From an uncultured archaeon (GTDB taxonomy: Archaea; Iainarchaeota; Iainarchaeia; Iainarchaeales; JAAZKV01): 64,000 nt of DNA. Made by a program: the position numbers and the translations under genes. Below, piece by piece: positions 18,595-62,412 of this stretch (within the stretch, counting starts at the first letter, position 1; each line of letters opens with the position of its first letter). Under the pieces are notes generated by a model, which made no database searches, was not told the origin of the DNA, and saw nothing but the letters and a program-made list of their open reading frames with translations. The stretch is from contig CAZOVD010000002.1 of the NCBI GenBank assembly GCA_964583285.1, positions 2,940 to 66,939 of the forward strand. Direction: 5' to 3'.

Positions 18595-18598
18595 TTAA

Positions 18599-19351: not shown

Positions 19352-19375
19352 TATTTCACCTTATTATAAAATTTT

Positions 19376-19402: not shown

Positions 19403-19403
19403 A

Positions 19404-19834: not shown

Positions 19835-19848
19835 AATTAAATCACTCC

Positions 19849-43046: not shown

Positions 43047-43733
43047 TTATTGTATATTTACTTTACATAGATATTCTGTTTTGTTATCTTCTTTTTTTAT
43101 AAATACTATTTTCCCCATTTTAGTTAATTCTGCAACTGTATTAATAATTGAATTATGGCCGTAGCCAGTTTTTAATTTTAAAATTTCATATATTTCAGTT
43201 TTTGTTTTATCAATAAGTTCTGGTGTGCTTTGAAAAATTGCTCCTATTTGTCCGAATAATTTTTTATTTTTAATATTTTTCATATCATATTCTGGAACAG
43301 AGTAAATTTGTATATTATTTCCTAAATTATAGACATCTAGAACTTCTCTTAATATACTCATTGATTTTAACATATACTGTATTAAAGATTTGCAAAAAAT
43401 ATTATTATCTAATAAGTCTATATAAGTGATTTTTTCTACAGGTATTATATTTGATTTTTCGCCTAATGTTGCTATTATGCCTTCAACAGTAAATGAGTCA
43501 TACTTTTGCTGTACTAAATCCATATATTCATACAATTGCTCAATTGCTGGCATTTTATTATTTATTTTTAGTTCAATTACTTTTATTTTTTTATTAAGTT
43601 TATCTATATATAATAAATCTATTCTTTTATTATTGATTTTATATTCTGAAAGTAATTGAGTATATTCATTGCTTTTTTTATCAAAAATTTCATTTGACAT
43701 TATTATTTGTTTTATTATTTGTTCACTTATCAT
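43047..43733 (-). CDS. PD-(D/E)xK nuclease-like N-domain plus winged-helix C-domain protein
   Basis: 'RIDLLYID...IKVIELK' (D...ExK). C-terminal 'EIYEILKLKTGYGHNSIINTVAELTKMGKIV' is HTH-like. Confidence 0.35.
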   Translation of the reverse strand: MISEQIIKQIIMSNEIFDKKSNEYTQLLSEYKINNKRIDLLYIDKLNKKIKVIELKINNKMPAIEQLYEYMDLVQQKYDSFTVEGIIATLGEKSNIIPVEKITYIDLLDNNIFCKSLIQYMLKSMSILREVLDVYNLGNNIQIYSVPEYDMKNIKNKKLFGQIGAIFQSTPELIDKTKTEIYEILKLKTGYGHNSIINTVAELTKMGKIVFIKKEDNKTEYLCKVNIQ

Positions 43734-46860: not shown

Positions 46861-47964
46861 ATGGAAGAACAAATAAATAAAATAAAAGAAACATTTGCAG
46901 TTTGGGAAACTAAACTAGGAATTCCAAAAGAACAATTGTTTCAAGAATTTGAACATAATATGAAATCTCTTGAAAAAAACTATAGTGGACCTACATTATT
47001 AGCAAGAGCAATTCAAATTATGAGAGGAGCATATAGTAAACAATTCAATAATAAAGCAAAAGCATTTGAATGTGTTGTTATTGGATTAGGGCAAGTTTAC
47101 GATAGATATAAGAAAGTAAGACAAGATGCTGTAGATAAAGGTTTCTTAAATGAAAATGGACAACCTATTTTTACAGATTATAAATGGAGAGAAGGAAAAA
47201 TTATTCCGCCAGCAAATAGTACAGAAAGTATGCAATCAAGAGTATATGGATTATTCAAAGAAAATACTCAAGGACAATGGAAACCTGGAGTAATGTTTTA
47301 TGATGGAAATCCACTTGATTCAAAACTATTATTTGCAAAAACACAAGTTCGTGGTGGAATAAAGGACGAAGCATTAGCAGACCCAGTATTAACAATAAAT
47401 AGTACAAATGTAACTAGATTTATTAAAACTGAAGATGCTAAAGATGTGGAAGAAATGTTTAAACAATTAATGCCACAGAATTGTATAGCATTAGAAAATA
47501 CAGGACAAGCTAATCCTGATTCATTACCATTAAATTTGGTTGTGACGAAAGGAACAGTAGTTAATGTAAATATTACTGAAGGAGATAAATCAAATATTGT
47601 TGAATTAGCTAAACCAATAAATGATTTAAATGATATTGATTTATCAGCAGTTGGTCCAGAAGAAACACCAAACTATACTATTTGGATGCCTAAACAAATT
47701 GACTTAACAAAAGTTGGAATAGGTTCTGAAGTATTAATTGTGACACAAATATCTAAAATAACAGATAAAGATAATAACTTAAAAACAAATTACAATGGAA
47801 TTGGATTATATGTATTAAATGGAGTTGTACCAGAAATACAAGATATTCCAGCACCAGTAGAAGAACAAACAAAAATAGATATAGTAACACCAAAAGTAGA
47901 GGAGCCAAAGACAGAAGCTCCTTCTGCACCAGTTGAAGAGCAAGGAAGTGATGTACCATGGTAG
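46861..47964 (+). CDS. ssDNA-binding protein candidate
   Basis: Lies between the helicase-like and RecA-like genes. Pro/Glu-rich linker and acidic C-terminal tail '...VEEQGSDVPW' resemble SSB tails. Confidence 0.3.
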   Translation: MEEQINKIKETFAVWETKLGIPKEQLFQEFEHNMKSLEKNYSGPTLLARAIQIMRGAYSKQFNNKAKAFECVVIGLGQVYDRYKKVRQDAVDKGFLNENGQPIFTDYKWREGKIIPPANSTESMQSRVYGLFKENTQGQWKPGVMFYDGNPLDSKLLFAKTQVRGGIKDEALADPVLTINSTNVTRFIKTEDAKDVEEMFKQLMPQNCIALENTGQANPDSLPLNLVVTKGTVVNVNITEGDKSNIVELAKPINDLNDIDLSAVGPEETPNYTIWMPKQIDLTKVGIGSEVLIVTQISKITDKDNNLKTNYNGIGLYVLNGVVPEIQDIPAPVEEQTKIDIVTPKVEEPKTEAPSAPVEEQGSDVPW

Positions 47965-48851
47965 AGCAAGTAAATATGAGTGGAACATCAACGTGGGGAG
48001 CAAAATCTCCCAACGCTATGCCAGAAGAAGAACTATTTCAAGATAAACCATTTGTGGAAAAAGGAAAAGATATTCTTTTATTTGGTGATAGTAATACAGG
48101 AAAAACATATATTGCATCAACTTGTCCTGCACCAATATTCTTTATAGATACTGAGGGGCGTGCTGACCTAACAAAAAAATATTACTTTAATAATAAAGAT
48201 ATAAAGATATTCTGTCCATTAGAAGTAAGACTTGATTTTAATGAACAAAATGCAGTAGAGAAAGCAATTAATCCAACGGAAAGTATCATGAAAATAAAAA
48301 AAGCTATTGCACAACTTGGAAAAAAAGCACAACTTGGGCAAATAAAAGGTGGAACTATTGTTGTAGATAGTATGTCTGATATTTGGTCTTGGTGCCAAGA
48401 AGATGGAAAAGAAAGACTCGCAAAAGCTGGAAAAATTGATTCATTAACCTTTCGTATGAAGAATCAATTTGATTGGGGTCCGATAACGCAAGAATATTTA
48501 AATATTCTAATAAGTTTGAAAAAATTTACAGAATATGGAATAAATGTTGTGATAACAAGCAGAGAAAAAAGTACTCCACCAGAATATGTGAAAGCATCAG
48601 AACCAACAACATTTGATGAAAAAATTAAAACACAAAAAGATACAGCATATTATATGAGTACAATTATTCATTTGACTGCAAGACAAATGAAAACAGAAAC
48701 TGGAGCAATAAAGAAAAGAAGATTTGCAAAAATTGAAAAATTAGAATCTGTATCAAGTATAGAAAATTTAGTTGAAGATATTACATATGATAAATTAATG
48801 GAAATACTTGACGCTAAAAGAAAAGAATTATTAGGAGGTGCACAAAAATGA
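47958..48851 (+). CDS. RecA-like/AAA_24-type ATPase (recombination or replication accessory)
   Basis: Walker A 'FGDSNTGKT' and Walker B 'TIVVDSMSDIW'. Confidence 0.5.
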   Translation: MVEQVNMSGTSTWGAKSPNAMPEEELFQDKPFVEKGKDILLFGDSNTGKTYIASTCPAPIFFIDTEGRADLTKKYYFNNKDIKIFCPLEVRLDFNEQNAVEKAINPTESIMKIKKAIAQLGKKAQLGQIKGGTIVVDSMSDIWSWCQEDGKERLAKAGKIDSLTFRMKNQFDWGPITQEYLNILISLKKFTEYGINVVITSREKSTPPEYVKASEPTTFDEKIKTQKDTAYYMSTIIHLTARQMKTETGAIKKRRFAKIEKLESVSSIENLVEDITYDKLMEILDAKRKELLGGAQK

Positions 48852-49072
48852 TTGATTTAGATTTAGACGCAGGTGTTTATTGTTCAATAACAGGAAAAAG
48901 AATTACAGGTAGTCAATTTGTTGATTTTTATACAGATAAAAATGGTAATTTAAAAATCAAATTAAAAACCGCAGTAGTTCCAAAAATGACAGAAGAAGGG
49001 TTCGCTGAGGAACCTGTTAATCTAAAAGATGAAATTATAAAGCATATTGACGAATATGAAGAGGAACAATAA
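48848..49072 (+). CDS. hypothetical protein
   Basis: 74 aa, ATGA-coupled. Confidence 0.45.
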   Translation: MIDLDLDAGVYCSITGKRITGSQFVDFYTDKNGNLKIKLKTAVVPKMTEEGFAEEPVNLKDEIIKHIDEYEEEQ

Positions 49073-49130: not shown

Positions 49131-49838
49131 ATGAAAATAAAATCCGAAATACTAACTAAATTTTTAACGCAAGTATGTAATAATGGAGAAACAAAAATTA
49201 TATCGTTAAAAATGAAATTTGAAGAAAATGGTTTAAATATTAATGCATTAAATACTGAAAAAACGGTATTAGCAAAAGCATTTATGCCAGCAACACAGTT
49301 TACCGATTATAAACCAATTGGTAATATAGCATCAGAAAATATACAAGAATTAATAAAAATTTTTAATACATTCAATGAAATGGAAATTGAAAAACAAGAT
49401 GCTTTATTAGTGATTAAAGAGGGCAAAAATAAATTTGAAACTTTATTAACAAGTGAAGAATTTGTTGAAGAAGGACCAGATAAAGCATTTGAATTTGACC
49501 AAATAGTAACAATAAATGCAGATGAAATAAAAGCATTAATTGATAGTGCATCTGTAAATAAAGAATTTATATTAAAAATAAAAACTCAAAAAGGAGCAAT
49601 TGAAATAGCAAATACAGGAAAATATAAATTTACAAAATTAATAGATTCTTTAGAAGCAGATGTAGGCATTGAATTAGCAGTTTCAAAACCATTTATTGAT
49701 GCAATAAAATCATTTACAGGAAATATTAAATTAGGACTAAAAAATAACTATCCTGTTCAAATATTAAATAAAACAGAAGTTAGTATGATAAGTATCATTG
49801 CTGCACCTTATACTGAAAAGAAAGAAGGTGCACAATAA
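49131..49838 (+). CDS. sliding clamp (PCNA-like) candidate
   Basis: 235 aa, acidic, the right size for a two-domain clamp subunit. Immediately precedes the RFC-like loader (TAAATG junction). Confidence 0.5.
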   Translation: MKIKSEILTKFLTQVCNNGETKIISLKMKFEENGLNINALNTEKTVLAKAFMPATQFTDYKPIGNIASENIQELIKIFNTFNEMEIEKQDALLVIKEGKNKFETLLTSEEFVEEGPDKAFEFDQIVTINADEIKALIDSASVNKEFILKIKTQKGAIEIANTGKYKFTKLIDSLEADVGIELAVSKPFIDAIKSFTGNIKLGLKNNYPVQILNKTEVSMISIIAAPYTEKKEGAQ

Positions 49839-50747
49839 ATGAATATAGCATCAATTGCATGGCAAGAAAAATATAGGCCTATAATAGTAGATAATATTAT
49901 CGGAGACCATACTAATAAAATAAAGAATTATATTTCTAATTTTGATAGTATGCCAAATATATTACTTGTTTCAAGACAACCTGGAACAGGTAAAACAACT
50001 ACTGCTAAGGCTATAATTAATGAAGTAAAAACCGATGCATTGATGCTTAATGCCTCCGATGAACGCGGTATTGATACTATAAGAGAAAAAGTAAAAAACT
50101 TTTCTATTACTATGGGATTGCAAGGAAAAAGAAAAATAATATTTCTAGATGAAATGGACAATCTTACTAAAGATGCTCAAATGAGTTTAAGAGCTATGAT
50201 GGAAGATTATACTAAAAATGTTGTTTTTATTTTATCTTGCAATTACATTAACAAAGTAATAGAACCATTAGTATCTAGATGTGTAACGATTAACTTATCA
50301 TTACCAAAAAAGGAAGGCATATATCAATATCTTGAAGATATTTGTAAAAAAGAAAATTTACAATATGAGAATACAGGTTTAAATGTTCTTATACAGCAAT
50401 ACTATCCTTCTATAAGAAATATGGTAAATGTTTTACAGGATTTACATAATGAAAATAAATCTGTAACTATTGATAATGTTTCTAAAAGTAATAATAATGA
50501 ATTTATTGATTATCTAAAACAAGGTAATTATGATGCTATAAGAATAAAATTATTTAAACAAGAGTATGATGCAGTTGAATTAAATCGTACATTGTGGCAT
50601 TATATTAATACTAGTAACTTTGATAGTAGTAAAAAAATATCACTAATAAAACTACTAGCAAATAATGAAAGGGATTTTTCTACAAGTGCAGATAAAAACA
50701 TAGTATTTTGTTCAATAATACCAAATTTAATAGAGGTTTTTAAATGA
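49839..50747 (+). CDS. clamp loader, RFC small-subunit-like AAA+ ATPase
   Basis: 'WQEKYRP', 'RQPGTGKTTTA', 'LNASDERGIDTIREKV', 'IIFLDEMDNLTKDAQ' and 'LVSRC' are the canonical RFC boxes. Confidence 0.85.
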   Translation: MNIASIAWQEKYRPIIVDNIIGDHTNKIKNYISNFDSMPNILLVSRQPGTGKTTTAKAIINEVKTDALMLNASDERGIDTIREKVKNFSITMGLQGKRKIIFLDEMDNLTKDAQMSLRAMMEDYTKNVVFILSCNYINKVIEPLVSRCVTINLSLPKKEGIYQYLEDICKKENLQYENTGLNVLIQQYYPSIRNMVNVLQDLHNENKSVTIDNVSKSNNNEFIDYLKQGNYDAIRIKLFKQEYDAVELNRTLWHYINTSNFDSSKKISLIKLLANNERDFSTSADKNIVFCSIIPNLIEVFK

Positions 50748-51238
50748 ATCTTTTTCAAGTAATTAGTCATATTTATACAGATAAAAATACTTTATGGATT
50801 GATTCTATAGAGGAAGATGAATTTGCACAATTACACCCTTTTATTATTACAAAATTTTTATCAATGAATAAATCATTATCTAATATAATAAAAATTTTAG
50901 ATAAATATTCATTTATTTTAGAACCAAAAAAATTTTTATTTGTAGCTTGGGCTGTTGTCCCTAAACAACCAACAGCACCATTTGTTAAATATATAAAGAA
51001 AGAAGAAGAAGTTCAAGAACTAGCATTCTTATATGAAAAAATAAAACATAATACAAAAGTGTATGGTAATGATTTTAAAACAATAAAAAAATATTTAGAC
51101 AAAGATATACAATCTGATATGAAAAAATATTTTATAAGGTTTGCTATTGATAAAAAATACTGGAAAAAATACGGATTAGAATATCCTAAATTTGAAAAAA
51201 AAGAAGAAAAACCGGTTGGTTTGGATGCGTGGTTTTAA
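50744..51238 (+). CDS. hypothetical protein (clamp-loader accessory candidate) ending in a PIP-like peptide
   Basis: 164 aa, ATGA-coupled to the RFC-like gene. C-terminus 'PVGLDAWF*'. Confidence 0.35.
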   Translation: MNLFQVISHIYTDKNTLWIDSIEEDEFAQLHPFIITKFLSMNKSLSNIIKILDKYSFILEPKKFLFVAWAVVPKQPTAPFVKYIKKEEEVQELAFLYEKIKHNTKVYGNDFKTIKKYLDKDIQSDMKKYFIRFAIDKKYWKKYGLEYPKFEKKEEKPVGLDAWF

Positions 51239-51369
51239 TGCAAGAATTATGTAAAAGATGTAATAGAAAATTAACAAGCGAGGAGAGTAGAATTAGAGGA
51301 TATGGCCCAAGTTGTTGGAAAAAAATTAAAAAAGAAGAACAACCAAACCTTGAAAAGTGGCTGGATTAA
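51238..51369 (+). CDS. zinc-ribbon mini-protein (43 aa) ending in a canonical PIP box
   Basis: MQELCKRCNRKLTSEESRIRGYGPSCWKK...EEQPNLEKWLD* (QxxLxxWL). TAATG junction. Below the track threshold. Confidence 0.5.
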   Translation: MQELCKRCNRKLTSEESRIRGYGPSCWKKIKKEEQPNLEKWLD

Positions 51370-51390
51370 CATTATATTTAAAAAGGTTTT
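51370..51390 (+). promoter_or_regulatory. early-type promoter motif in front of the deazaguanine operon
   Basis: CATTATATTTAAAAAGGTTTT, with the box 39 nt upstream of ATG 51424 (SD 'aaaggagtgattat'). Confidence 0.6.
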
Positions 51391-51423
51391 GTTAAAATAA
51401 TATATTATGAAAGGAGTGATTAT

Positions 51424-51870
51424 ATGAAAAAATTTTCAGTTACAAAACATATAAGATTTGATTATGGACATAGAGTACCATTTCATAAATCTAAATGCTA
51501 CAATACACACGGTCACAATGGAGAAGTTCATGCTACAATTGAAGGACCATTAGTAGATATTAATAACGATAATGATTTTGGTATGGTAATGGATTTTAGT
51601 AAAATAAAAGAATTACTAATGAAAGTGAGTCATGATAGATTTGACCACAAATTTTTACTTTGGAAAGATGACCCATTATATTTACAATATAAAGATTTAC
51701 CAGGTATGGTTACTGTTGATTTTGTTCCAACAGCAGAAAATTTAGCTAAACATATTTACGAAGAATTACAAAAAGAACTAGATAATATTAATTTTAAAGG
51801 AAAAGTAACTAATGTTAGGTTTTTTGAAACACCAACAAGTTATGCTGATTATAGTGGAGATGATGAATAA
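51424..51870 (+). CDS. queD: 6-carboxy-5,6,7,8-tetrahydropterin synthase (QueD, PTPS family)
   Basis: 'FDYGHRVPFHKSKCYNTHGHNGEV' carries the His/Cys zinc and catalytic pattern of PTPS/QueD; 148 aa. Confidence 0.85.
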   Translation: MKKFSVTKHIRFDYGHRVPFHKSKCYNTHGHNGEVHATIEGPLVDINNDNDFGMVMDFSKIKELLMKVSHDRFDHKFLLWKDDPLYLQYKDLPGMVTVDFVPTAENLAKHIYEELQKELDNINFKGKVTNVRFFETPTSYADYSGDDE

Positions 51871-52628
51871 TGCCAATAACTTTAATTGATTCATTTCCTA
51901 AAGAAAAAAGAGAAGCAAGAAAAGATGGTTCTGCTATTTTACATATAGCAGAAAATTTTATGGATACTATTCAAGGTGAAAATATGGTTGGTGTTCCTAG
52001 TACTTTTTTAAGATTGCAAGGTTGTACTCTTAATTGTGTCTGGTGTGATACTGCTGAAGTATGGAGACAAGGAAACCCATATTCTGTAGATGAAATACTT
52101 GATATATGGGACCAAACTGGTTTACTTTTTAAATTTGAAGAAGGCCAACATTTAATTTTAACAGGTGGAAGTCCATTAAAGCAACAAGATGCTTTAATTG
52201 AATTAATTACTAAAGTAAAAGAAATTAGTCCAAAAACAATTGTTGAAATAGAAAATGAATGCGTATTAATGCCAAAACAAGAAATGATTGATTTAGTAGA
52301 TATTTGGAATAATAGTCCAAAATTAAAAAATAGTGGCATGAATGAATTAGTTAGATATAAACCTGAAGTATTAACAAAAGTTTCTGGTTTAGAAAATAGT
52401 TATTTTAAATTTGTAATAACTTCAGAAGAAGATTGGCAAGAAATTAAAAATGATTTTTTAGACCCTGGTTGTATTAAAAAAGAACAAATAGTATTAATGC
52501 CAGAAGGACAAACAAGAGAAGAATTACAAAAACATTATGATATTGCGGTAAACATTGCTGTAAGAGAAAATGTAAGATTTACAGATAGATTGCATGTAAC
52601 AATTTGGAATAAGAAGACGGGCGTATAA
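51870..52628 (+). CDS. queE: 7-carboxy-7-deazaguanine synthase (QueE, radical SAM)
   Basis: 'FLRLQGCTLNCVWCDT' (CxxxCxxC) and 'LTGGSPL'. TAATG junction with queD. Confidence 0.85.
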   Translation: MPITLIDSFPKEKREARKDGSAILHIAENFMDTIQGENMVGVPSTFLRLQGCTLNCVWCDTAEVWRQGNPYSVDEILDIWDQTGLLFKFEEGQHLILTGGSPLKQQDALIELITKVKEISPKTIVEIENECVLMPKQEMIDLVDIWNNSPKLKNSGMNELVRYKPEVLTKVSGLENSYFKFVITSEEDWQEIKNDFLDPGCIKKEQIVLMPEGQTREELQKHYDIAVNIAVRENVRFTDRLHVTIWNKKTGV

Positions 52629-52630
52629 TT

Positions 52631-53044
52631 ATGGTAAAAAAAGTATATGTTAGTTATGAAGACGTAAAATCAGCAATAGAATTATTATGGGAATTATATA
52701 ATTCTGAAGCAGAAGTTGAACAAATGAAATATGTTTATGGTGTTCCAAGAGGTGGAATTATTCCAGCAATAATGTTTTCAAATATATCTGGTTTAAAATA
52801 TATTGATATATTAGATAAAAAAATTCATACACCACAAAATACTATTGTTATTGATGATATAGTTGATAGTGGCAAAACAAGAAAAAAATATATTGATTAT
52901 TTTTTTTCAGCAATTATTGATAAAATAGAAGCTCAAGATTATAAAGGTAAATGGATTGAATTTTTTTGGGAAAAAACAGAAGCAGATGATAAAGATTTAG
53001 TATTAAGAATAGCACAAAGATTAGGAGTTGATATAAAATGCTAG
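52631..53044 (+). CDS. type I purine phosphoribosyltransferase, XGPRT-like
   Basis: 'YGVPRGGIIPAIMF' and the PRPP loop 'IVIDDIVDSGKT'. Colinear with E. coli Gpt blocks ('AVSRGGLVPGALL', 'FIVIDDLVDTGGT', 'WIEQPWD' versus 'WIEFFWE'). Confidence 0.7.
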   Translation: MVKKVYVSYEDVKSAIELLWELYNSEAEVEQMKYVYGVPRGGIIPAIMFSNISGLKYIDILDKKIHTPQNTIVIDDIVDSGKTRKKYIDYFFSAIIDKIEAQDYKGKWIEFFWEKTEADDKDLVLRIAQRLGVDIKC

Positions 53045-53706
53045 ATAAAAGTAAAACTAATCCAGAACTTGGAAAAAAAGTAAATGATTATTTAAAAGAA
53101 AAAGGAGTTCATACGCCAACAGAAATGCATAATAATATGGACAATAAAGAAAAGAAAGAGTATATTGAATCATTATATAATAATATAATGGAAGCTCTTA
53201 ATCAAGATTTAAATGATGATAGTTTAAAAGATACTCCTAGAAGAGTTGCTAAAATGTATGTTGATGAATTATTTTGGGGTATGGATTCAAATAATTTTCC
53301 TAAATGTACAGCAGTTGAAAATAAAATGAAATATGATGAAATGGTTGTTGAAAAAAATATTAAAGTAGCTTCAGTATGTGAGCATCATATACAACCTATT
53401 TGGGGTAAATGCCATATAGCATATATACCAGATAAAAAAGTAATTGGTTTAAGTAAAATGAATAGAATAGTAGAATATTTTTGTAGAAGACCACAAATAC
53501 AAGAGCGTTTAACAGAACAAATTTATTATGCATTATCTTATATTTTAGAAACACCAAATGTAGCAGTAGTAATTGATGCTGAACATTTTTGTGTAAAACT
53601 AAGAGGAGTAGAAGATATTAATTCTAGTACTGTAACAAGTAAACTTGGAAAAAAATTTATTGAAGAACCAGAATTAAGAGCTGAATTTATGGGGTTGATA
53701 AAATGA
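53038..53706 (+). CDS. folE: GTP cyclohydrolase I (FolE type 1)
   Basis: 'TPRRVAKMY', 'SVCEHHIQPIWGKCHIAYIP' and 'RPQIQERLT'. Confidence 0.9.
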   Translation: MLDKSKTNPELGKKVNDYLKEKGVHTPTEMHNNMDNKEKKEYIESLYNNIMEALNQDLNDDSLKDTPRRVAKMYVDELFWGMDSNNFPKCTAVENKMKYDEMVVEKNIKVASVCEHHIQPIWGKCHIAYIPDKKVIGLSKMNRIVEYFCRRPQIQERLTEQIYYALSYILETPNVAVVIDAEHFCVKLRGVEDINSSTVTSKLGKKFIEEPELRAEFMGLIK

Positions 53707-54476
53707 GTGAAAAAGCTGTAATAATATTGTCTGGAGGAATGGATTCTGTAGTGTTACTACATTATCTAATAAAAAAATTAAATAAAAAAGTGCATGCCTT
53801 AAGTTTTGATTATGGACAAAAACATAATATTGAACTTGAAATGGCTAAAAAAAATATTGAGGAATTGAAAGAAAATATTGTTGATTGGAAAATTCTTGAT
53901 ATTACATTTATGAAAGAATTATTAAAAGGAAGCAATGCCTTAACAGATGATAATATTGAAGTTCCAACTCTTGAAGAAGTAATTGGAGAGCCACAACCTA
54001 TTACATATGTTCCAATGAGAAATTTAATGTTTTTAACTCTTGCATCAGCTTATGCTGAAGCTGTTGGAGCATCTGATGTGTATTATGGAGCACAAAAACA
54101 TGATGAATATTCAGGTTATTGGGATACTACTTCAATGTTTAGAGATAAATTAAATGATGTTTTAACACTTGATAGAAAAAATACTATTAAGATTAAAGCA
54201 CCATTTGTTAACTTGCATAAATCAGAAGAAGTTATTCTTGGTAATGATTTAGGAGTTGATTTTTCTAAAACATGGACTTCATATAAGGTAATTGATATAG
54301 AAAATTTAATTGCTGATATTGATAATCCCACAAGTAGGGATAGAATTAAAGCGTTTGCAGAAGCAGGTATTCCTGACCCACAAAAATATAATAAAGAAAT
54401 TAATTGGGAAGAATTATTTGAAAAATATAAAAAAGATTTTACAGTTGAAGAAGTATCTAAAAAATTGGTGTTATAG
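53703..54476 (+). CDS. queC: QueC-like PP-loop ATPase lacking the four zinc-ligand cysteines
   Basis: 'AVIILSGGMDSVV' and 'YVPMRNLMFL' are QueC-like. Where B. subtilis QueC has 'LTCYNG...GCGECPACHLR', this protein has 'TWTSYKV...IDNPTSRDRIK'. Confidence 0.7.
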   Translation: MSEKAVIILSGGMDSVVLLHYLIKKLNKKVHALSFDYGQKHNIELEMAKKNIEELKENIVDWKILDITFMKELLKGSNALTDDNIEVPTLEEVIGEPQPITYVPMRNLMFLTLASAYAEAVGASDVYYGAQKHDEYSGYWDTTSMFRDKLNDVLTLDRKNTIKIKAPFVNLHKSEEVILGNDLGVDFSKTWTSYKVIDIENLIADIDNPTSRDRIKAFAEAGIPDPQKYNKEINWEELFEKYKKDFTVEEVSKKLVL

Positions 54477-55055
54477 ATGTGTGGTATTGTTGGTTGGAAA
54501 GAATGGAATTCAAGTATTAAAAATTTACAATATTTAAACAGCAAACGCGGTGGATATTCTACAGGTGTATTTAATTTTGAAAATAATTATTCGTTTTCAA
54601 ATGAAGGAACATTTTTTCCAACTGATACAAATAATTCTATTGTTCAATACCGTGCTCCAACTGCAGGTATTAATAATTTTATAAAACAAGAAAATTATCC
54701 ATTGAAATATAAAAATTGGAATTTATTTGGAAATGGTGTAATTAATGCTGATTTTTTTAAGCAAATTAAAGATGAAGATAACAATAATGATTTATACTAT
54801 ATATTAAAAGGAATTGTGAATAATGGTTTTAAATGGCTTGAAAAAGTTGAAGGAACATTTGCATTGGTTATTATTGATGACAATCATAATATTTATCTAA
54901 TACGAAAAGATTTTCCATTATTTTTTAATAAAAATCAATTTAGTAGTATTCAATTTGATAATAGTGAAAAACTTAAAAGTGGAATTTTATATGATTGGAC
55001 GTATAATAAACATGTTAAAGAATTAAATTTTAAAGAAGAATATTTACATTTATAG
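54477..55055 (+). CDS. stand-alone class II (Ntn) glutamine amidotransferase domain
   Basis: N-terminal 'MCGIVG' (Cys2 nucleophile). AsnB-like blocks 'KRGGYSTGV', 'GNGVINA' and 'VEGTFALVIIDDNHNIYLIRKDFPLFF'. Confidence 0.7.
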   Translation: MCGIVGWKEWNSSIKNLQYLNSKRGGYSTGVFNFENNYSFSNEGTFFPTDTNNSIVQYRAPTAGINNFIKQENYPLKYKNWNLFGNGVINADFFKQIKDEDNNNDLYYILKGIVNNGFKWLEKVEGTFALVIIDDNHNIYLIRKDFPLFFNKNQFSSIQFDNSEKLKSGILYDWTYNKHVKELNFKEEYLHL

Positions 55056-55067
55056 GAGTGATTTAAA

Positions 55068-55547
55068 ATGAGTAGAAATGATGAAGAATTAAAAGATGTT
55101 ACCTTATTAGGTAATCAAAATACAAAATATGAAATGGATGAGGTTAAACCAGAATTACTTGAAACGTTTGATAATAAACACCCAGAAAATGATTATCTTG
55201 TTTCTTGGAAGTGCCCAGAATTTACAAGTACTTGCCCAAAAACAGGACAGCCAGATTTTGCAACAATAATAATTCAATATGTTCCAAGAATTAAAATGGT
55301 TGAATCAAAATCATTAAAACTATATTTATTTAGTTTTAGAAATCATGGAGATTTTCATGAAGATTGCGTAAATATTATTATGAAGGATTTAATTAAATTA
55401 ATGGACCCTAAATGGATTAGAGTAATAGGAGATTTTACACCAAGAGGTGGAATAAGTATAAATCCAATTGCAGAATATACAGCAAAAGATTATACACCAC
55501 CGGCACATTATCTAGCATTACCACAAATACATCAAAGACATCTATAG
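55068..55547 (+). CDS. queF: NADPH-dependent preQ0 reductase (QueF, unimodular type)
   Basis: Catalytic '[13 protein letters not shown]' and the QueF motif '[21 protein letters not shown]'; 159 aa. Confidence 0.85.
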
Positions 55548-55556
55548 AGTGATATT

Positions 55557-56021
55557 ATGAATCAGTTACTAATAGATGTTGATGTAGATTTATTACAAGT
55601 TAGGGGACCAGTTGAAGATGATATTCGTCAATGTCAAAAATTACTTGAACAATGCAGTACATTTGTTTATGCTACAACTTTGAAGGAAATGATAAAAAAA
55701 CATAGAGTATTTATTCTTGGTGAAATTGGATGCCCTATTGGAATAATTGTATTTAATGCATCATTTAATACAATATCATATTTAGCAGTTCATACGCAAT
55801 TCAGACAAAAAGGTATTGCTCAAAAGTTATTTAATTATGGTATAGATTATCATAATATAAATAGTTTAATAATAAAAGCAATGATTGATGAACCAAGTTC
55901 TGAACCATTTTGGTCTAAACTTGGTTTCATTTCTACTCAAAAAATCTATACCACTAAACGAAAAAAGTTACTTGAAATGATTTGGTATAGAAAAAAATCA
56001 TGTGAGGTTAGTTTAATATGA
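55557..56021 (+). CDS. GNAT-family N-acetyltransferase
   Basis: Acetyl-CoA motif A 'LAVHTQFRQKGIAQKLF' and C-terminal 'FWSKLGF'; 154 aa. Confidence 0.65.
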   Translation: MNQLLIDVDVDLLQVRGPVEDDIRQCQKLLEQCSTFVYATTLKEMIKKHRVFILGEIGCPIGIIVFNASFNTISYLAVHTQFRQKGIAQKLFNYGIDYHNINSLIIKAMIDEPSSEPFWSKLGFISTQKIYTTKRKKLLEMIWYRKKSCEVSLI

Positions 56022-57202
56022 ATAGAAATTTTTTTGAAGCAAATAAATTAGTATATTTACCTGCAATTTTGCCAGCAAAAGGTCTTTATTGTAATAATCA
56101 TGGGTTGGATTTTGAACCTCAATTTTGGAACAATAAAGGTATATGGCAATATGATAATTTACTAGTATCAACATATCATGCAAAAGAAATAAAAAATTTT
56201 AGAGAAGAACTTGAAATAGATAATAAAGTAAAAATACTTGGCGATAGCGGAGGTTTTCAAGCTGTAACACTTGGCGGTGATTTAAACGCTAAAGAAGTAA
56301 TTAAATGGCAATTAAGTAATTGCGATGCAGGATTAATTCTTGATAGACCGCCATATGAATTTAATAATACTGCTCAATTTAGTGGAACTCCAACTGAAGA
56401 ATTTTTTAATAAATGCTTACAAATAACATATGATAATGCAAAAATTGCTTTATTATATAATAATGAATCATATGAAAATCACTCTGATAAACCTATAAGA
56501 TTATATGGAGTTATTCAAGGTGAAACTTGGCAACAGATGATTAATTGGTATAAAAGAATGCATGAATTAGAAATTGAAACAAAATATGAATTTAATGCTT
56601 GGGCTATGTCTCCAAAACCATCTTATGACCCAATTAAAATTGCTATGTTTGGAATTATTGCTCTTGAATATAAATTAAATAAACCAATTCATATTTTACA
56701 AGTTAGTGGAAAAGGTGGTATCTTTATTGGAGCATTAATTAGAAAATTGACAGGCCAACCTGTAACAATTGATTCATCTACTTGGGGTGTTTCAGCAAGA
56801 TATGGAACAGCAATTGACCCATTAAATATTCCAGATTTAACGCCTGTTGGGCAAAAACTTAATACAGATAATATGTCTGGATGGTTTTGTGATTGTCCAA
56901 TATGTTCTAAATTAAAAATAAATGTAGAAAAAATTGGAGAAAAATATACTCATTATTTAAATGTTCATAATTTATATCAACTTGCTAAAATTACAAAATA
57001 TTTTGATTTTATGATTCAAAATAAAAACGAAGATATTATTTTAATTGCAAGAAGAATTTCTAAAGATTGCGAAACTGCAGCGCAAATGCTATTAGATTAT
57101 AAACAATTTGGATTTAAATATACTGCAAATAAATATAGAGAGGTTTTTAATGATGAAAATAAAATAAATTTAAAAAATCAAACAAATATATTTAATTTTT
57201 AA
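56018..57202 (+). CDS. dpdA: DpdA-type DNA-guanine transglycosylase (TGT superfamily)
   Basis: 'KILGDSGGFQ' and the zinc motif 'FCDCPICSKL...YLNVHNLY'; 394 aa, ATGA-coupled. C-terminus 'QTNIFNF*'. Confidence 0.8.
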   Translation: MNRNFFEANKLVYLPAILPAKGLYCNNHGLDFEPQFWNNKGIWQYDNLLVSTYHAKEIKNFREELEIDNKVKILGDSGGFQAVTLGGDLNAKEVIKWQLSNCDAGLILDRPPYEFNNTAQFSGTPTEEFFNKCLQITYDNAKIALLYNNESYENHSDKPIRLYGVIQGETWQQMINWYKRMHELEIETKYEFNAWAMSPKPSYDPIKIAMFGIIALEYKLNKPIHILQVSGKGGIFIGALIRKLTGQPVTIDSSTWGVSARYGTAIDPLNIPDLTPVGQKLNTDNMSGWFCDCPICSKLKINVEKIGEKYTHYLNVHNLYQLAKITKYFDFMIQNKNEDIILIARRISKDCETAAQMLLDYKQFGFKYTANKYREVFNDENKINLKNQTNIFNF

Positions 57203-57216
57203 GGAGGGGATTTGAG

Positions 57217-59127
57217 ATAGAAAAAATTTTAATATATGATTTAGAGACAAAAACTCCAGAAAAAGCACCTAATCCTGAACTTGATGAAGTCAGAGTTATT
57301 GGTTTTTGGTCTAGTATTACTAATGAATATCATATTGAATTTTATGATAATTATAAAACAAAACAAGACTTTCTGAATAAAATTAAAAATATTTTTGCTG
57401 TTCATGATTTTTTAGTTGGTTTTAATAATTTACAATACGATAATTCAGTTTTATATCATAATAAATTACATGGCATAAATACTAATAAATGGGGTGATTA
57501 TACAATTATTGGCAAAGTGAATATTGATTTAATGCAAATATTTAAAATGCGCGCTGGTGCAATGAAAATAGATAAAGGGATGCTTGGAGATTTATTAATG
57601 AGTTATAGTCTTGATTTTATTTCTCAAACAATTGGTATTGTTAAAAATAATGGAAAAATTAAAGATTTTGATTATATGTTATTAAATAAAGATTCTTGGA
57701 GTAAAGAAGAAAAAGAAAACATAAAAGAATATACATTAAAAGATATTGAAGTAACTAAAAAAATGTATGATTGGCTTGAAAATTATTTTGAAGGATTTAA
57801 GCCTTTTTTAAAAGAAGAAGATAATAAAAAGAAAGATTATTTAACAATACCAATAAGTGTTTTTGCTTATAAATCAATATGTAAAGCAATGAATTGGCAA
57901 GAAGAATATGCAAAGAAAAATCATCATACAAGTTATGGTGGAGGATATGTTGCTTATCCTGCTGGAGAACATTTTTCAGGAAATATTTATTGTCTTGATT
58001 TTAATTCTTTATATCCTTCTATAATGCATCAATGTAATATTTATTCACCTGTAGCTTATAGTAATGATGGTGATGAAGCAATTAAAACTTGTTGGACAGG
58101 AAATAATAAGTTTAAGGTAGAAGGATGTTATGATACTAGACAACAAGGCAAAGTAGAAAAATTATTAAAAGAATGGTATGAACAAAGATTAATTTGGAAA
58201 AAACAAAGAGACCCAAGAGAATATTCTATTAAAATAATTATTAATACAATTTATGGATTATTAGGAAATGAAGCGTTTAAACATATTGCTAATCCTATTT
58301 CTGCCGGTGATGTAACTAGAATTGGACGTCAATGGGTAAAACTCTCAAGAACAAGATTTAAAGAAGCTGGATATGAAGTAATTTATACTGATACTGATTC
58401 TGTATATATTATTGATAAAGTTAATGATAAAGAAAAAATGTTAAAAGTAAAAGATAAAATAATACAAGAAATAAAAGAAAATATTCCATTCCCATATGAA
58501 AATTTTGATATGGGAGTTGATGATGAAATATCTGATATGTGGTTCTTTAAAGGTGGAATAAAAGATAAAGATACTGATGATGAAATGGACGAAATGGATT
58601 TTGAAAATAAATCAAAAGGTTTTATGAAAAAAAATTATATCTATAGAACAATAGATGGTAAAGTAAAAGTTAAAAACCTTGGTGTTAGAAAAAAATCTAC
58701 TAGTGCTTTAACAAGAAAAATATTTTGGGATTATTTAATACCAAAAATCAGTCAAGAACGAAAAGTTAAATTTCCAAAAGAATATTTTGTTGAAGTAATA
58801 GATGAAATATTAAAAAAAGATATCAAAACTGCAGCAAAAAGATTTCAGGTTGCACCATTAGAAACTTATAAATTAGATGGACAATTACAAGCACAAATAG
58901 CCAAAGAATATGGCCCAGGAATACATTTTTTAATTAGAAATAAAAGAATAGGAATAGGAAAAGGTGTAAAATATTGTACTATAGATGAATTTATTTCTAG
59001 TAAATTAACAACAAAAGATTTAGTTCTTACAGGTATTTGGAAAGAATTAGCTTATTTTATTGATGGAGATATAGAATTAGAATCTGAAAAATATTCCCAA
59101 AGTACTGCATTAACGGAGTGGTTTTAA
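57217..59127 (+). CDS. polB: family B DNA polymerase with 3'-5' exonuclease; apparent non-ATG (ATA) start
   Basis: ExoI 'ILIYDLET', ExoII 'GFNNLQYDNSVL' and ExoIII 'YTLKDIEV'. Pol motifs A 'DFNSLYPSIM', B 'KIIINTIYGLLG' and C 'YTDTDS'. The track ORF (57517) omits ExoI and ExoII. Confidence 0.85.
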   Translation: MEKILIYDLETKTPEKAPNPELDEVRVIGFWSSITNEYHIEFYDNYKTKQDFLNKIKNIFAVHDFLVGFNNLQYDNSVLYHNKLHGINTNKWGDYTIIGKVNIDLMQIFKMRAGAMKIDKGMLGDLLMSYSLDFISQTIGIVKNNGKIKDFDYMLLNKDSWSKEEKENIKEYTLKDIEVTKKMYDWLENYFEGFKPFLKEEDNKKKDYLTIPISVFAYKSICKAMNWQEEYAKKNHHTSYGGGYVAYPAGEHFSGNIYCLDFNSLYPSIMHQCNIYSPVAYSNDGDEAIKTCWTGNNKFKVEGCYDTRQQGKVEKLLKEWYEQRLIWKKQRDPREYSIKIIINTIYGLLGNEAFKHIANPISAGDVTRIGRQWVKLSRTRFKEAGYEVIYTDTDSVYIIDKVNDKEKMLKVKDKIIQEIKENIPFPYENFDMGVDDEISDMWFFKGGIKDKDTDDEMDEMDFENKSKGFMKKNYIYRTIDGKVKVKNLGVRKKSTSALTRKIFWDYLIPKISQERKVKFPKEYFVEVIDEILKKDIKTAAKRFQVAPLETYKLDGQLQAQIAKEYGPGIHFLIRNKRIGIGKGVKYCTIDEFISSKLTTKDLVLTGIWKELAYFIDGDIELESEKYSQSTALTEWF

Positions 59128-59942
59128 TGCCAAAATTATGGAATTCAATTAGAATAGAAATGTACAATAAACTTCTTGATAAAAATATTGAAGAAAAAGT
59201 ATTATATGATATTATGAACCATGCAAGTTATCTTGGTTTGCAAAACATTGTTTTAGATAATATTAATATAAATTGTTTTTCAAAATTTAATTTTAATACA
59301 ATTATTTCATATGTAAAGAAAAAAGAATTAAGTATAAAATTAATATTTACTGATTTTATTAGTGAAGGATTAATGAAACAATATATTCAAGAATATAATG
59401 ATATATGTTTTATTCGCACACAAAGTAATGAAGGTTTAGATTTATTTAAAAATATTATTTTTGAAATTTCAACTAATAATTTAAATTTAAATTATGAGAA
59501 AGTATTTATTGATTTTAAAAATAATAAGAAAAAAATATGGTTAGAAATTGTTAATTATTATGATAAGAATCAAGAAACATTTTGGTGCGGGGGAGAAAGA
59601 ATTGCTGGAAATGGATTTAGTATAAATGATAGAAGTAGAATTAAATCTATTATTCGTTCTGCAAAGAAACATAATATCCAAAACTTTGACTATTTATTGA
59701 AAGCTGATACTTATGGTATTACGCAAAATTTTAACTGTAAGTATTTATTATTACCTACTGTTAAAATTGATGGAAGTATTTGGAATTGTAAACAAAGACC
59801 ATTTATAAAACCTATATCATTCTTAGATATAAAACCGAGAGAAGAAAATGTATTATCAGGACTATTAATTAATACTAGCAAAAATTGTACTGGATGTTGG
59901 CAACCAGAATTATTTGGAGGTATTACCAATGAAATTAGATAG
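59118..59942 (+). CDS. radical-SAM/SPASM-like protein lacking the CxxxCxxC cluster
   Basis: C-terminal 'LLLPTVKIDGSIWNCKQ...NCTGCW' is SPASM/twitch-like. No N-terminal Cys triad. Confidence 0.3.
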   Translation: MVLMPKLWNSIRIEMYNKLLDKNIEEKVLYDIMNHASYLGLQNIVLDNININCFSKFNFNTIISYVKKKELSIKLIFTDFISEGLMKQYIQEYNDICFIRTQSNEGLDLFKNIIFEISTNNLNLNYEKVFIDFKNNKKKIWLEIVNYYDKNQETFWCGGERIAGNGFSINDRSRIKSIIRSAKKHNIQNFDYLLKADTYGITQNFNCKYLLLPTVKIDGSIWNCKQRPFIKPISFLDIKPREENVLSGLLINTSKNCTGCWQPELFGGITNEIR

Positions 59943-60731: not shown

Positions 60732-61769
60732 ATGGTTGAAATTCTAAATAAATTATATAATAGATTTCCAAGACAGATAGGTATCCCGTATAGATATACT
60801 TTCAATAATTATGCTGAATTTTATAATTTTATTAATAGAAAAAAATTTCATCATAGAATATATGCGTCTTTATATAATTATACTGGCGATGATGTAATTG
60901 ACAAAAAGAATCTAATGGTAGATAAAATATTTTTTGATTTGGACAATGATAAATGTTTTGAAAATGTTAAATTACTACATGAAAAAGCAATGAAAAATAA
61001 TTATAAACATTGTATCTTTTTTAGTGGTGGAGGATTTCATTTTTATATTTTTACAAAAAATTATGAAAAATTAAAAAATAAAAAAGATGCTTTATTTAAT
61101 GCACAACAATTTATTGCAAAAAATACTAGTTTAAAAATTGGTGAAGCACATGAATATGATTTAGATGAAAAAATAATTGGAGATATTGCAAGAATAGCAA
61201 CTGTTCCATTTACATATAATCATAAACGAAAAAGGTTTTGTATAGGTGTTAGTGAAGAAATGCTTAATACTAGTTATAAAGATATTAAAGAACAAGCAAA
61301 ACAACAAATATTTAAATCATATGTATATGGAACAGATTTATTTGATATATCTAAATTTGATACAGAAAGACCAATACATATTAAAGAATTTGAAATAACA
61401 AAAGATTTACAGATAGAAATTGATTCAGATTCCATGTTAAAAGAATTACCACCTTGTGCTATTAATTGGTTAAAACAACCACATGTAGGATATAAAAAAC
61501 GCGGTTATATTATTATGTTACTAAGGGATAAAGGATATTTATTAGAAGAAACCGAAGAATTTTTAAAAAGACATTTACAACCAGCAGAATTTATACACTG
61601 TTGTACAAGACAATTTGCTCCAGGTTATAATGAACCAGGAGAAAATCAACATGTATATCTTTATAATAATAGAAAAACAGTATTTCCTAATTGTAGTACT
61701 TTAAAGTTTTTAGGAGAATGTGTTTGCCCTGATAAAGAAAAATGCAAAGAGGTTGATTTTTATAAATAA
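60732..61769 (+). CDS. archaeo-eukaryotic primase (PriS-like) fused to a PriL-CTD-like Cys-rich domain
   Basis: AEP motifs 'KIFFDLDND', 'FFSGGGFHFYIF' and 'DIARIATVPFTYNHK'. C-terminal 'LPPCAINWL' plus 'HCCTRQF' and 'CSTLKFLGECVCPDKEKC'. Confidence 0.75.
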   Translation: MVEILNKLYNRFPRQIGIPYRYTFNNYAEFYNFINRKKFHHRIYASLYNYTGDDVIDKKNLMVDKIFFDLDNDKCFENVKLLHEKAMKNNYKHCIFFSGGGFHFYIFTKNYEKLKNKKDALFNAQQFIAKNTSLKIGEAHEYDLDEKIIGDIARIATVPFTYNHKRKRFCIGVSEEMLNTSYKDIKEQAKQQIFKSYVYGTDLFDISKFDTERPIHIKEFEITKDLQIEIDSDSMLKELPPCAINWLKQPHVGYKKRGYIIMLLRDKGYLLEETEEFLKRHLQPAEFIHCCTRQFAPGYNEPGENQHVYLYNNRKTVFPNCSTLKFLGECVCPDKEKCKEVDFYK

Positions 61770-62412
61770 ATTACAAGTAGATAATAGAGAAGATAAGGTA
61801 TCAAAAAAAATATTTACATATCTAGACGATGCTAAAATTGAATATGAAGTAGCTCAATTAACTATAGGAGATTATAGACTGCCAAATGGAGAAATTGTAG
61901 AGAGAAAATCTTTAATGGATTTTGTTCAAAGTTATATTAATCATCATCTACAAAATCAGCTTGATTCTATGGATTTAAATTTAGAAAGATATTATGTATT
62001 TATTTCAGGAAAATATAATTATTTTGATTTTCAAAATAGAAATCTGCCATATATTACTGAAAATGTTATTTCAAAAATGTGTTTGCATCTGTTACAAAAC
62101 TATCCTAAATTAAGAATAGTTTATTTCCCTAATGATAAAGCATTAATAGAAATAGGAATAAAAGAATTATTAACATATGAAGGACAGAGATTTAAAGAAA
62201 CTTATATTAAAAAACAACAGCGCAAAGAGGATATTGTTGCAAGTATGCTTACTTGCATTCCTGGTGTAGGATTAAAAAGAGCAACAGAAATTGTTGCTGT
62301 ATGTCCAACATTAGATAATTTGCGGATTTCAATTGCAGAAAGAAACCCAGATTTATTTAATATTAAAGGAATTAGTGAAAAAAAATTATTGGAGATTTTA
62401 ACATATATTTAA
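61720..62412 (+). CDS. XPF/Mus81/Hef-family (ERCC4) structure-specific nuclease with HhH
   Basis: 'VDNRE', 'GDYRLPNGEIVERKSLMDFVQS' (GDxnERKx3D) and 'IPGVGLKRATEIV'. Start overlaps the primase by 50 nt. Confidence 0.75.
   Translation: MFALIKKNAKRLIFINKLQVDNREDKVSKKIFTYLDDAKIEYEVAQLTIGDYRLPNGEIVERKSLMDFVQSYINHHLQNQLDSMDLNLERYYVFISGKYNYFDFQNRNLPYITENVISKMCLHLLQNYPKLRIVYFPNDKALIEIGIKELLTYEGQRFKETYIKKQQRKEDIVASMLTCIPGVGLKRATEIVAVCPTLDNLRISIAERNPDLFNIKGISEKKLLEILTYI

Follow-up and report, generated by a model that had tools for sequence, protein, structure and literature searches.

A candidate clamp-ligand peptide at the C-terminus of a viral DNA guanine transglycosylase, DpdA

The 64,000-nucleotide stretch of contig CAZOVD010000002.1 analysed here (the window) belongs to a novel tailed virus from activated sludge and represents its replication and DNA-modification arm; identical sequence was detected in activated-sludge metagenome runs. 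One of its genes encodes a DpdA-type DNA guanine transglycosylase, and the short peptide at the C-terminus of this protein is our main subject. Five proteins of the window, DpdA among them, had been proposed to carry C-terminal tails resembling PCNA-interacting peptides (PIPs). Four of these tails, those of the family B DNA polymerase (PolB), a small clamp-loader subunit, a 43-aa zinc ribbon and DpdA, are conserved peptides of the clamp-ligand type, and the fifth, on the clamp-loader ATPase, is a false positive. The comparisons suggest that DpdA is a previously unreported client of the T4-style clamp-ligand interaction; the interaction as a kind is known already, and DpdA as a client would be new.

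The virus seems to encode its own replisome, made up of PolB, a PCNA-like ring clamp and a T4-style loader (a gp44-like ATPase and a small gp62-like subunit). The genes on which the argument turns are the following.

49131-49838, plus strand: PCNA-like sliding clamp, 235 aa, two-domain protomer, from a profile match to PCNA
49839-50747, plus strand: gp44/RFC-like AAA+ clamp-loader subunit, 302 aa, from phrog_168 and Pfam
50744-51238, plus strand: gp62-like small clamp-loader subunit, 164 aa, from phrog_225 and hhalign
51238-51369, plus strand: DUF6011 zinc ribbon, 43 aa, from PF19474
56018-57202, plus strand: DpdA-type DNA guanine transglycosylase, 394 aa, from motifs, a structural model and Foldseek
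57217-59127, plus strand: PolB, about 636 aa, from PF00136 and phrog_262

All five peptides are encoded where they had been reported, each with a stop codon directly after it: IPNLIEVFK on the gp44/RFC-like protein (50718-50747), PVGLDAWF on the 164-aa protein (51212-51238), QPNLEKWLD on the 43-aa protein (51340-51369), QTNIFNF on DpdA (57179-57202) and STALTEWF on PolB (59101-59127). The pattern said to unite them, a hydrophobic residue followed by any two residues and two aromatics, did not hold for the set, being strict in only two of the five (LDAWF of the 164-aa protein and LTEWF of PolB). The 43-aa protein ends in W-L plus one further residue, DpdA in I-F-N-F (hydrophobic, aromatic, any, aromatic) and the gp44/RFC-like protein in I-E-V-F-K.

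Chance occurrence was assessed on 101 window open reading frames (ORFs) with 20,340 residues. The loose motif [LIVM]xx[WFY][FLIWYMV], placed no more than two residues from the C-terminus, was observed seven times against 2.6-3.3 expected and is barely enriched; loose matches in ORFs of the structural module (31126-32589, 38938-39297 and others) were treated as background. The narrower L-x-x-W-[FL] occurs seven times in the proteome. Three of the seven stand at the very end of a protein, namely the 164-aa protein, the 43-aa protein and PolB, where 0.06 would be expected (Poisson P ~4e-5, for a motif that was defined post hoc). For DpdA, the window alone gives one terminal [LIV]F.F against 0.2 expected, which is not significant; the support for its tail comes from homologs.

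Relatives of the virus were reached through DpdA homologs as the syntenic contigs L001-L009, with the common gene order helicase, clamp, gp44-like, 164-aa, que genes, DpdA, polymerase and DUF6011. The tail of the window's gp62-like protein, GLDAWF (51218-51235), follows a charged linker (KFEKKEEKPV), and the corresponding proteins of relatives end in GLDKWF, GLEMFGL, DLFSYV, ISKWW, LQRWFN and GQVSLF. The PolB tail ALTEWF (59107-59124; PolB matches PF00136 at E 2e-21) has counterparts in GLDKWF, GLSHWI, NLMNWE, GLGDFLV and ILDFM. The 43-aa protein (PF19474, E 1.4e-12) ends in QPNLEKWLD (51340-51366), and DUF6011 proteins of relatives end in DIRKWLD, LKLFDYENDNSG, HRLDEYGV, LLVDFEVEDV and again QPNLEKWLD. 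Across syntenic relatives the linkers ahead of the three tails have diverged while the tails were kept, and in L001 PolB and the gp62-like protein both end in the hexapeptide GLDKWF. The three replisome proteins of the window thus share the peptide [G/N/A]-L-x-x-W-[F/L] after a charged, variable linker, and for these three the proposal of a common, conserved terminal peptide of the clamp-ligand type was borne out. Such a peptide on the polymerase and on other proteins of the same virus, as in T4, was found in the window, L001, L029 and a marine clade described below. On this sequence evidence the L-x-x-W-[FL] ends are most likely T4-style clamp-ligand tails.

The PIP box of archaea and eukaryotes reads Q-x-x-[LIM]-x-x-[FY]-[FY]. 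Its full spacing, as Q-x-x-L-x-x-W-L, is matched only by the 43-aa protein, which had been singled out as a textbook PIP box. The Gln of position 1 is present there and in DpdA, is Pro in the gp62-like protein and is Ser in PolB, where a Gln stands one residue further up; it is kept in DpdA homologs and not in the PolB, gp62-like and DUF6011 tails of relatives. An aliphatic residue at position 4 with aromatic or hydrophobic residues at positions 7 and 8 is found in the gp62-like protein (L..WF), PolB (L..WF) and the 43-aa protein (L..WL). Unlike the PIP box, the DpdA tail has its aromatics at positions 5 and 7 and reaches the stop codon at position 8 (I-F-N-F), and the gp44-like end (I..FK) does not fit the spacing either. 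What the peptides here do have in common with PIP-box proteins is a PCNA-type clamp and disordered terminal peptides with an aliphatic residue followed by aromatics three positions on.

The tail-bearing set also flags the 43-aa DUF6011 protein as a likely replisome or clamp accessory. Overlaps of stop and start codons (ATGA, TAATG; 50744-51369) link the gp44-like, 164-aa and 43-aa genes, the first joining the gp44-like stop to the 164-aa start and the second the 164-aa stop to the 43-aa start, which would couple the 43-aa protein to the 164-aa protein in translation. In relatives DUF6011 is always directly 3' of the gp62-like gene or of PolB, and this placement together with the overlapping genes suggests a stoichiometric accessory of the replisome.

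The fifth tail, IPNLIEVFK on the gp44-like protein, was rejected. This C-terminus is not conserved: relatives end in ..PNLIKLMRKHESDQNNR, ..EIILTLTKED, ..MLFKIVGALI and ..IMRVLNVRPT, and in L003 the PNLI segment is internal, lies in a helix and is followed by ten more residues. The gp44-like C-terminus is the end of the protein's last helix and no tail. The expectation that related viruses keep the tails was thus confirmed for the 164-aa protein, the 43-aa protein, PolB and DpdA and failed for the gp44/RFC-like protein.

DpdA was aligned with 19 homologs of 25-53% identity (alignment A1). The catalytic motif DSGG[FY]Q has invariant D76, S77, G78 and G79, with Q81 present in at least 90% of the homologs; the zinc site C-x-C-x2-C...H retains C291, C293 and C296 in at least 90% and H317 in all of them. 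An AlphaFold2 model (predicted local distance difference test, pLDDT, 85.5; predicted template-modelling score, pTM, 0.87) gave as its top Foldseek match 7UI4, 'DNA preQ0 insertase DpdA' (E 1.8e-9, TM 0.45), with other TIM barrels trailing by five orders of magnitude. The protein has no match to the Pfam tRNA-guanine transglycosylase (TGT) model. We assign it as a predicted DpdA-type transglycosylase, an enzyme that would put a 7-deazaguanine base into DNA. Viral DpdAs have been divided into subfamilies DpdA1-4 (Hutinet 2019, PMC6884629; Cui 2023, PMC10516641). Our protein resembles them in its TGT-type catalytic and zinc motifs, in having 7UI4 as its best structural match and in adjoining FolE, QueD, QueE and QueC genes, a QueF gene and a polymerase. 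Assignment to DpdA3, the 'complete replacement' subfamily, was rejected: unlike the window protein, the DpdA3 of phiST (259 aa) carries no tail, and the two show no hidden Markov model (HMM) match. The phiST genome has no annotated clamp in its first 50 kb. Proteins with a TGT domain from Vibrio phage GR11A and phage NCTB (530 aa, with basic or other ends) were uninformative.

In the model the folded part of DpdA stops near residue 377 and pLDDT falls below 50 over residues 383-394, as expected for a short linear motif on a flexible end. Most of the 19 homologs end in Q-x-x-[LIV]-F-x-F or close to it (NSLFDF, LNIFNF, KGLFEF, QTVFDF, KNIFSF and others). An exhaustive profile search yielded 2,101 DpdA representatives, and tail statistics were computed on 158 sequences, namely the window DpdA, the homologs of the first search and the best 150 of the 2,101 representatives. 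A hydrophobic/aromatic motif in the last ten residues was present in 94 of the 158, against 18.4 expected from composition-matched random decamers (maximum 31), and an aromatic residue was among the last three in 120. Qxx[LIVM][FWY] was found in 43 of the tails and in 0-2 of the control windows taken 20-80 residues upstream. The composition-matched controls speak against AT-rich composition as the explanation. Two flavours recur, Q-x-x-L-F(-x-F) and L-x-[DE]-[WFY]-[FLI] (NLDEFF, LSDWI, LENWF), and many representatives stop at a bare ..QxxLF (KQQSLF, QKSLF, TQKKLF). The DpdA part of the original prediction therefore stood in that the tail is conserved down to 25% identity on a disordered end, and did not stand in that its flavour (QxxIFxF) is not that of the LxxWF tails.

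The clamp to which such tails might bind has, as a single sequence, no match in Pfam or PHROG, and word-indexed protein searches returned only a 98%-identical twin and, later, three sequences. A profile of eight sequences (A2: the window protein, the twin P0021 and six syntenic homologs) matched PCNA over its full length, archaeal at E 1.5e-13 and human at E 2e-11, with profile positions 21-233 aligned to PCNA residues ~22-249. Bacterial beta clamps matched the same profile at E 1.7e-9, and the best 60 of its 104 sequence matches in the PDB were PCNAs and a few beta clamps, with no gp45; comparison with T4 gp45 in hhalign gave a probability of 7.6%. An AlphaFold2 model built from 4 sequences was poor (pLDDT 52), and its top Foldseek matches, all PCNA at E ~1e-7, add weak support. 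Because of the full-length profile match, the presence of a virus-encoded PCNA-like clamp, rather than a gp45-like one, is confirmed at the level of sequence profiles.

The loader is of the T4 type. The gp44-like protein matches phrog_168 'clamp loader' at E 8.6e-68 and the Pfam families AAA, DNA_pol3_delta2 and Gp44_lid. The signals of the 164-aa protein are weak (phrog_225 'clamp loader', E 3.8e-4; hhalign to T4 gp62, probability 47%, E 1.9e-4); its size and position are those of T4 gene 62, and it begins with MNLF where T4 gp62 begins with MSLF. We assign it as the small clamp-loader subunit with moderate confidence. With a gp44-like loader, the archaeal setting that had been implied for these proteins was not established.

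Four independent pointers appear to lead from the DpdA tail to the clamp. The first is contig L029, where the tails of PolB (..GQVKLF), the gp62-like protein (..GQVSLF) and DpdA (..KQISLFGRWS) share Q-x-[SK]-L-F; the three proteins are unrelated, and PolB and the gp62-like protein are ligands of the classical kind. The second is a large marine clade of IMG/VR contigs in which DpdA ends in ..VFNQFFE, ..FNKFFKF or ..FSKFFDI and PolB of the same genomes in ..LGKFF[AS]F, ..MNKFFSF or ..LNQFFSF. The similarity of PolB and DpdA tails scored 15.9 within a genome versus 5.6 across lineages, and among all C-termini with adjacent double aromatics in the 352 distinct ORFs of the marine loci, the [KQ]FF type occurs only on PolB and DpdA. 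The third is the gene neighbourhood. In the marine clade the DpdA gene abuts or overlaps the clamp gene, and in the cultured phage 9g (L113, NC_024146; 36-3960) a polymerase, a 'replicative clamp' (gp02) and DpdA (gp03, ending in ..LQDLFDE) are annotated consecutively; gp02 has no Pfam match.

The fourth pointer is contig L114, whose replisome proteins (clamp, loader, 164-aa and 367-aa) are 95-98% identical to those of the window. It carries an exchanged modification module with a DpdA of only 26% identity, and even so this DpdA terminates in ..GQQSNIFNF where the window protein has ..KNQTNIFNF. The two DNAs cannot be aligned upstream and are nearly identical exactly from the first codon of the DpdA tail, which indicates that the tail travels with the replisome block or is selected to match it. 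The L114 module (12740-20078, corresponding to 51870-57202 of the window) looks like a cassette swap: it contains an intein-interrupted QueE (588 aa, with Hint domains), a nucleoside 2-deoxyribosyltransferase, a fusion of a glutamine amidotransferase (GATase) with QueC, an S-adenosylmethionine (SAM) methyltransferase, a 295-aa ORF and DpdA.

Gene order in the marine contigs (L018-L090; for example L032, 5752-15576) is PolB ... DpdA, clamp, gp44-like ... gp62-like. The marine gp62-like proteins have no C-terminal motif and start with ..ATIFDH, an N-terminal LF-type sequence as in T4 gp62 (MSLFKDD). One further modification enzyme may carry a tail: a SAM methyltransferase of L007 (7668-8450; Cons_hypoth95/RrnaAD-like) within the que/DpdA cluster ends in NQNNIFKYI, the flavour of the L007 DpdA (KQKNIFSF), and is possibly a second clamp-tethered DNA-modification enzyme. 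Two other candidates were dismissed as fold elements, the end of the L001 GNAT protein (..GLEKWYKNEI; the window GNAT has the same W-Y internally) and that of the clade-2 FolE (..EYYEFVKGY).

Taken at the level of sequence, the partner of the DpdA tail is probably a sliding clamp, with the viral clamp favoured, and the proposed tethering is well supported comparatively. FolE, QueD and QueE, together with QueC and QueF, would make the 7-deazaguanine base and DpdA would exchange guanine in DNA for it. The tail Q-x-x-[L/I/V]-F-x-F would dock the enzyme on the clamp, most probably the viral one, and concentrate it where DNA has just been replicated, sharing a three-site ring with the polymerase or sitting on clamps that the polymerase has left behind, so that base exchange would be coupled to replication. 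We infer from the comparisons that the tails bind a clamp, which clamp this is and what effect binding has on the modification level.

Several observations weigh against this reading of the DpdA tail. The DpdAs of L014 (..YKHRWG) and L015 (..EHRGLL) have no clear motif, Phe, Asn, Lys and Ile are favoured in AT-rich genomes, and the clamp model is itself of low confidence. Glu and Trp of the PolB tail are encoded by GAG TGG, which overlaps the Shine-Dalgarno (SD) sequence GGAGTGG of the next gene, and conservation there may be partly at the nucleotide level. The junction in L114 may be a recombination accident at the tail and not the result of selection on it. In the window lineage the DpdA and PolB tails score 6.9 within a genome versus 8.7 across lineages, and a DpdA tail unlike the PolB tail makes a different site or partner possible. 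Finally, a C-terminal Q-x-x-L-F is also the bacterial beta-clamp motif QL(S/D)LF (PMC9690074), and by sequence the DpdA tail fits bacterial QxxLF at least as well as the PIP box.

The last two points make the host clamp a live alternative, though in our judgement an unlikely one: the DpdA tail would bind the host's sliding clamp (a bacterial beta clamp, or PCNA if the host is archaeal) and the LxxWF tails would serve the viral clamp. The DpdA consensus Q-x-x-[LIV]-F and the bare ..QxxLF ends match the beta-clamp pentapeptide, the DpdA flavour in the window lineage differs from that of PolB, the gp62-like protein and DUF6011, and the 9g DpdA with its ..LQDLFDE end comes from a phage of E. coli. 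Against it, the viral PolB and loader subunit of L029 themselves end in QV[SK]LF, which places the flavour among the ligands of this family of viral clamps. The marine DpdA tail copies that of the viral PolB, the DpdA gene abuts the viral clamp gene in the marine clade and 9g, and in L114 the tail remained with the replisome block.

Docking of the DpdA tail on some other partner (the polymerase, a protein resembling the single-stranded DNA-binding protein SSB, a base-synthesis enzyme or a helicase), or a role as an intramolecular or oligomerisation element, with only a superficial resemblance to clamp ligands, strikes us as rather improbable. Short hydrophobic or aromatic C-terminal peptides do serve many systems, the SSB tip DDDIPF being an example; the 367-aa protein of the window ends in ..GSDVPW and the 9g helicase in ..DFDDDIPF, and bacterial DpdA reportedly works with partner proteins. 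Such a partner would leave unexplained why the DpdA tail matches those of PolB and the loader subunit of the same genome in two independent lineages, and the model predicts a disordered tail that does not pack against the fold.

That the tails have no function and reflect AT-rich codon usage (Phe, Asn, Lys, Ile, Tyr), SD sequences in 3' coding ends and post-hoc motif picking is very improbable and has been largely refuted by the conservation data: the loose motif is hardly enriched in the window, the PolB tail does overlap an SD, SD sequences shape other C-termini here (..LLGGAQK, ..KEGAQ) and the RFC-like tail proved spurious, but the motifs are conserved at the protein level at 25-50% identity with differing downstream gene arrangements, the family-wide DpdA enrichment is five-fold over composition-matched controls with Qxx[LIVM][FWY] essentially absent from control windows, terminal L-x-x-W-[FL] far exceeds expectation, the DpdA tail codons contain no SD, and the gp62-like protein of L001 keeps GLDKWF although its gene ends 100 nt before the next.

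Clamp docking of DpdA can be extended to a broader proposal, which we put forward tentatively and hold with less conviction. Viral 7-deazaguanine hypermodification would then be physically co-replicative, with DpdA (in some relatives also a methyltransferase from its gene cluster) acting as a genuine client of the viral PCNA-like clamp through a portable C-terminal peptide, the evolution of which follows that of the polymerase tail. Such recruitment would be general in a large DpdA clade of hundreds of 50%-identity clusters that includes cultured Queuovirinae (9g), and tethering would set the fraction of G that is replaced.

Clamp-ligand tails plug into a hydrophobic pocket on the front face of the ring. 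In T4, the C-termini with which gp43, gp55 and gp33 bind the clamp are hydrophobic/acidic, highly similar and interchangeable, and the linkers that carry them are divergent and probably unstructured; among clamp ligands the polymerase and the clamp loader are the best established, the loader being listed as a further one in the same review (PMC2988020). The T4 record (NC_000866) gives ..SLDFLFG as the end of gp43 and ..SLDFLYEAND as that of gp55. As in T4 and RB69, unrelated proteins of our virus, including a family B polymerase, end in near-identical short hydrophobic peptides after a divergent linker, and the gp44-like ATPase loader has a small second subunit encoded immediately downstream. 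Unlike in T4, the clamp resembles PCNA in sequence, the tails read L-x-x-W-F or Q-x-x-L-F-x-F and not S-L-D-F-L-[FY], the small loader subunit also carries a C-terminal tail, and instead of transcription factors a DNA transglycosylase and a zinc ribbon of 43 aa are the extra putative clients.

With bacterial QL[SD]LF peptides the DpdA family shares the core Q-x-x-[LIV]-F at or beside the C-terminus. Position 2 is not Leu in most DpdA tails, and the viral clamp, with two domains, differs from the three-domain clamps of bacterial systems. The nearest conceptual parallels are DNMT1 and MUTYH, which are tethered to PCNA, and UNG2, which is listed as a PCNA partner (PMC9690074); in these, as would be the case for DpdA, the clamp links an enzyme of DNA-modifying or glycosylase type to replication. 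DpdA insertion has been called post-replicative in an account that mentions neither a clamp nor a C-terminal docking peptide (PMC10516641), and a full-text literature search for DpdA with PCNA or 'sliding clamp' returned nothing relevant.

The window has a GC content of ~27%, and strong SD sequences of the AGGAGTGAT type precede 65 of its 95 genes, against a background of 9%. C-terminal codons double as the SD of a coupled downstream gene in PolB (59107-59130; ..ACG GAG TGG TTT TAA TG) and at 51221-51241, and further SD codons lie at the ends of the Sak4-like gene (..GGA GGT GCA CAA AAA TGA) and the clamp gene (..GAA GGT GCA CAA TAA). SD sequences within 3' coding ends bias C-terminal residues to Gly, Glu and Trp in this AT-rich genome; relatives with other downstream gene arrangements still keep the PolB tail motif.

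The start of PolB is unusual. Its frame is open from 57196 and has no ATG, GTG or TTG before 57517, and in tblastn the PolBs of relatives match this frame from 57220 on, a stretch that contains the ExoI motif IYDLE. The likely start, and the only plausible one, is a non-canonical ATA (57217) that follows the SD AAGGAGGGG at a distance of seven bases; L114, the near-identical relative, has this ATA too. An ORF caller would shorten PolB by ~100 residues.

The remaining features of the window are listed below.

~2.6-42 kb, minus strand: virion proteins (portal, HK97-type capsid, tail tube, fibres)
from ~42 kb, plus strand: replication and DNA-modification genes
46861-47964, plus strand: 367-aa protein without a family match
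47958-48851, plus strand: Sak4-like ATPase
48848-49072, plus strand: 74-aa ORF
51424-55547, plus strand: 7-deazaguanine genes QueD, QueE, 137-aa ORF, FolE, QueC, 192-aa ORF and QueF
55557-56021, plus strand: GNAT
downstream of PolB: Cas4-like nuclease, 345-aa protein and ERCC4-like nuclease

In the modification cluster, Pfam gave PTPS (7e-31), Fer4_12/Radical_SAM, GTP_cyclohydroI (6e-63), QueC (7e-51) and QueF (3e-35), and the 137-aa ORF had no family match. The 192-aa ORF (54477-55055) has no Pfam match and starts with MCGIVG, an opening like that of an N-terminal nucleophile (Ntn) amidotransferase. QueF is at 55068-55547, followed by the GNAT acetyltransferase. The presence of QueF predicts preQ1, and what is inserted may be preQ1 in a further derivatised form.

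Upstream of the Sak4-like ATPase, the 367-aa protein ends in acidic residues and Trp (..EEQGSDVPW), as do its relatives (..KPEEEW and ..EEDDDNVW; L007 1141-2244 and L008 2631-3650). This end is reminiscent of the SSB tip, and the protein may be an SSB partner of Sak4; it shows no detectable similarity to the DUF669 SSB of phage 9g. In 9g it is the helicase (9945-11948) whose C-terminus reproduces the tip of E. coli SSB exactly.

A nuclease with a NucS C-terminal domain (43047-43733, minus strand; E 2.8e-7) and a weak ERCC4 domain (61915-62412, plus strand; E 9e-4) were also found. Both families are usually counted as archaeal-flavoured. The 345-aa protein (60732-61769, plus strand) is kept 3' of the polymerase in relatives and has no Pfam match; its L006 homolog has only a faint DNA_primase_S match, and a primase would be a guess. 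None of these three proteins, NucS-like, ERCC4-like or 345-aa, has a clamp-type tail. At the end of the structural block, a 289-aa protein of transglutaminase-like cysteine-protease fold (3353-4222, minus strand; E 7e-6) adjoins a small hydrophobic ORF (2949-3332, minus strand), and the two are a possible lysis cassette. This fold class occurs in bacterial endolysins and archaeal pseudomurein endoisopeptidases alike, and the 289-aa protein therefore does not settle the host.

Other hints to the host are weak: a 52%-identical DpdA from the profile A3 scan lies on a contig binned as 'Bacilli bacterium', and the marine-clade contig L092 was binned in a Nitrosopelagicus metagenome-assembled genome. 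No tRNA genes were found in the window. Searches of cultured phages by tblastn gave distant PolB and TGT-domain matches only, with no close cultured relative, and IMG/VR scans with the single PolB or clamp protein found no relatives.

The share of guanines that DpdA enzymes replace in the DNA of viruses ranges from <0.1% to 100%. A conserved, transferable peptide of docking type on DpdA is a candidate mechanism for how the enzyme finds new DNA and for its efficiency. If the tail does bind the clamp, a DNA-hypermodification enzyme would join the clients of sliding clamps, analogous to DNMT1 or UNG2 on PCNA, and the recurrent adjacency of DpdA, clamp and polymerase genes would be explained. Swapping or deleting the tail could then serve to tune modification levels in engineered phages and to study anti-restriction.

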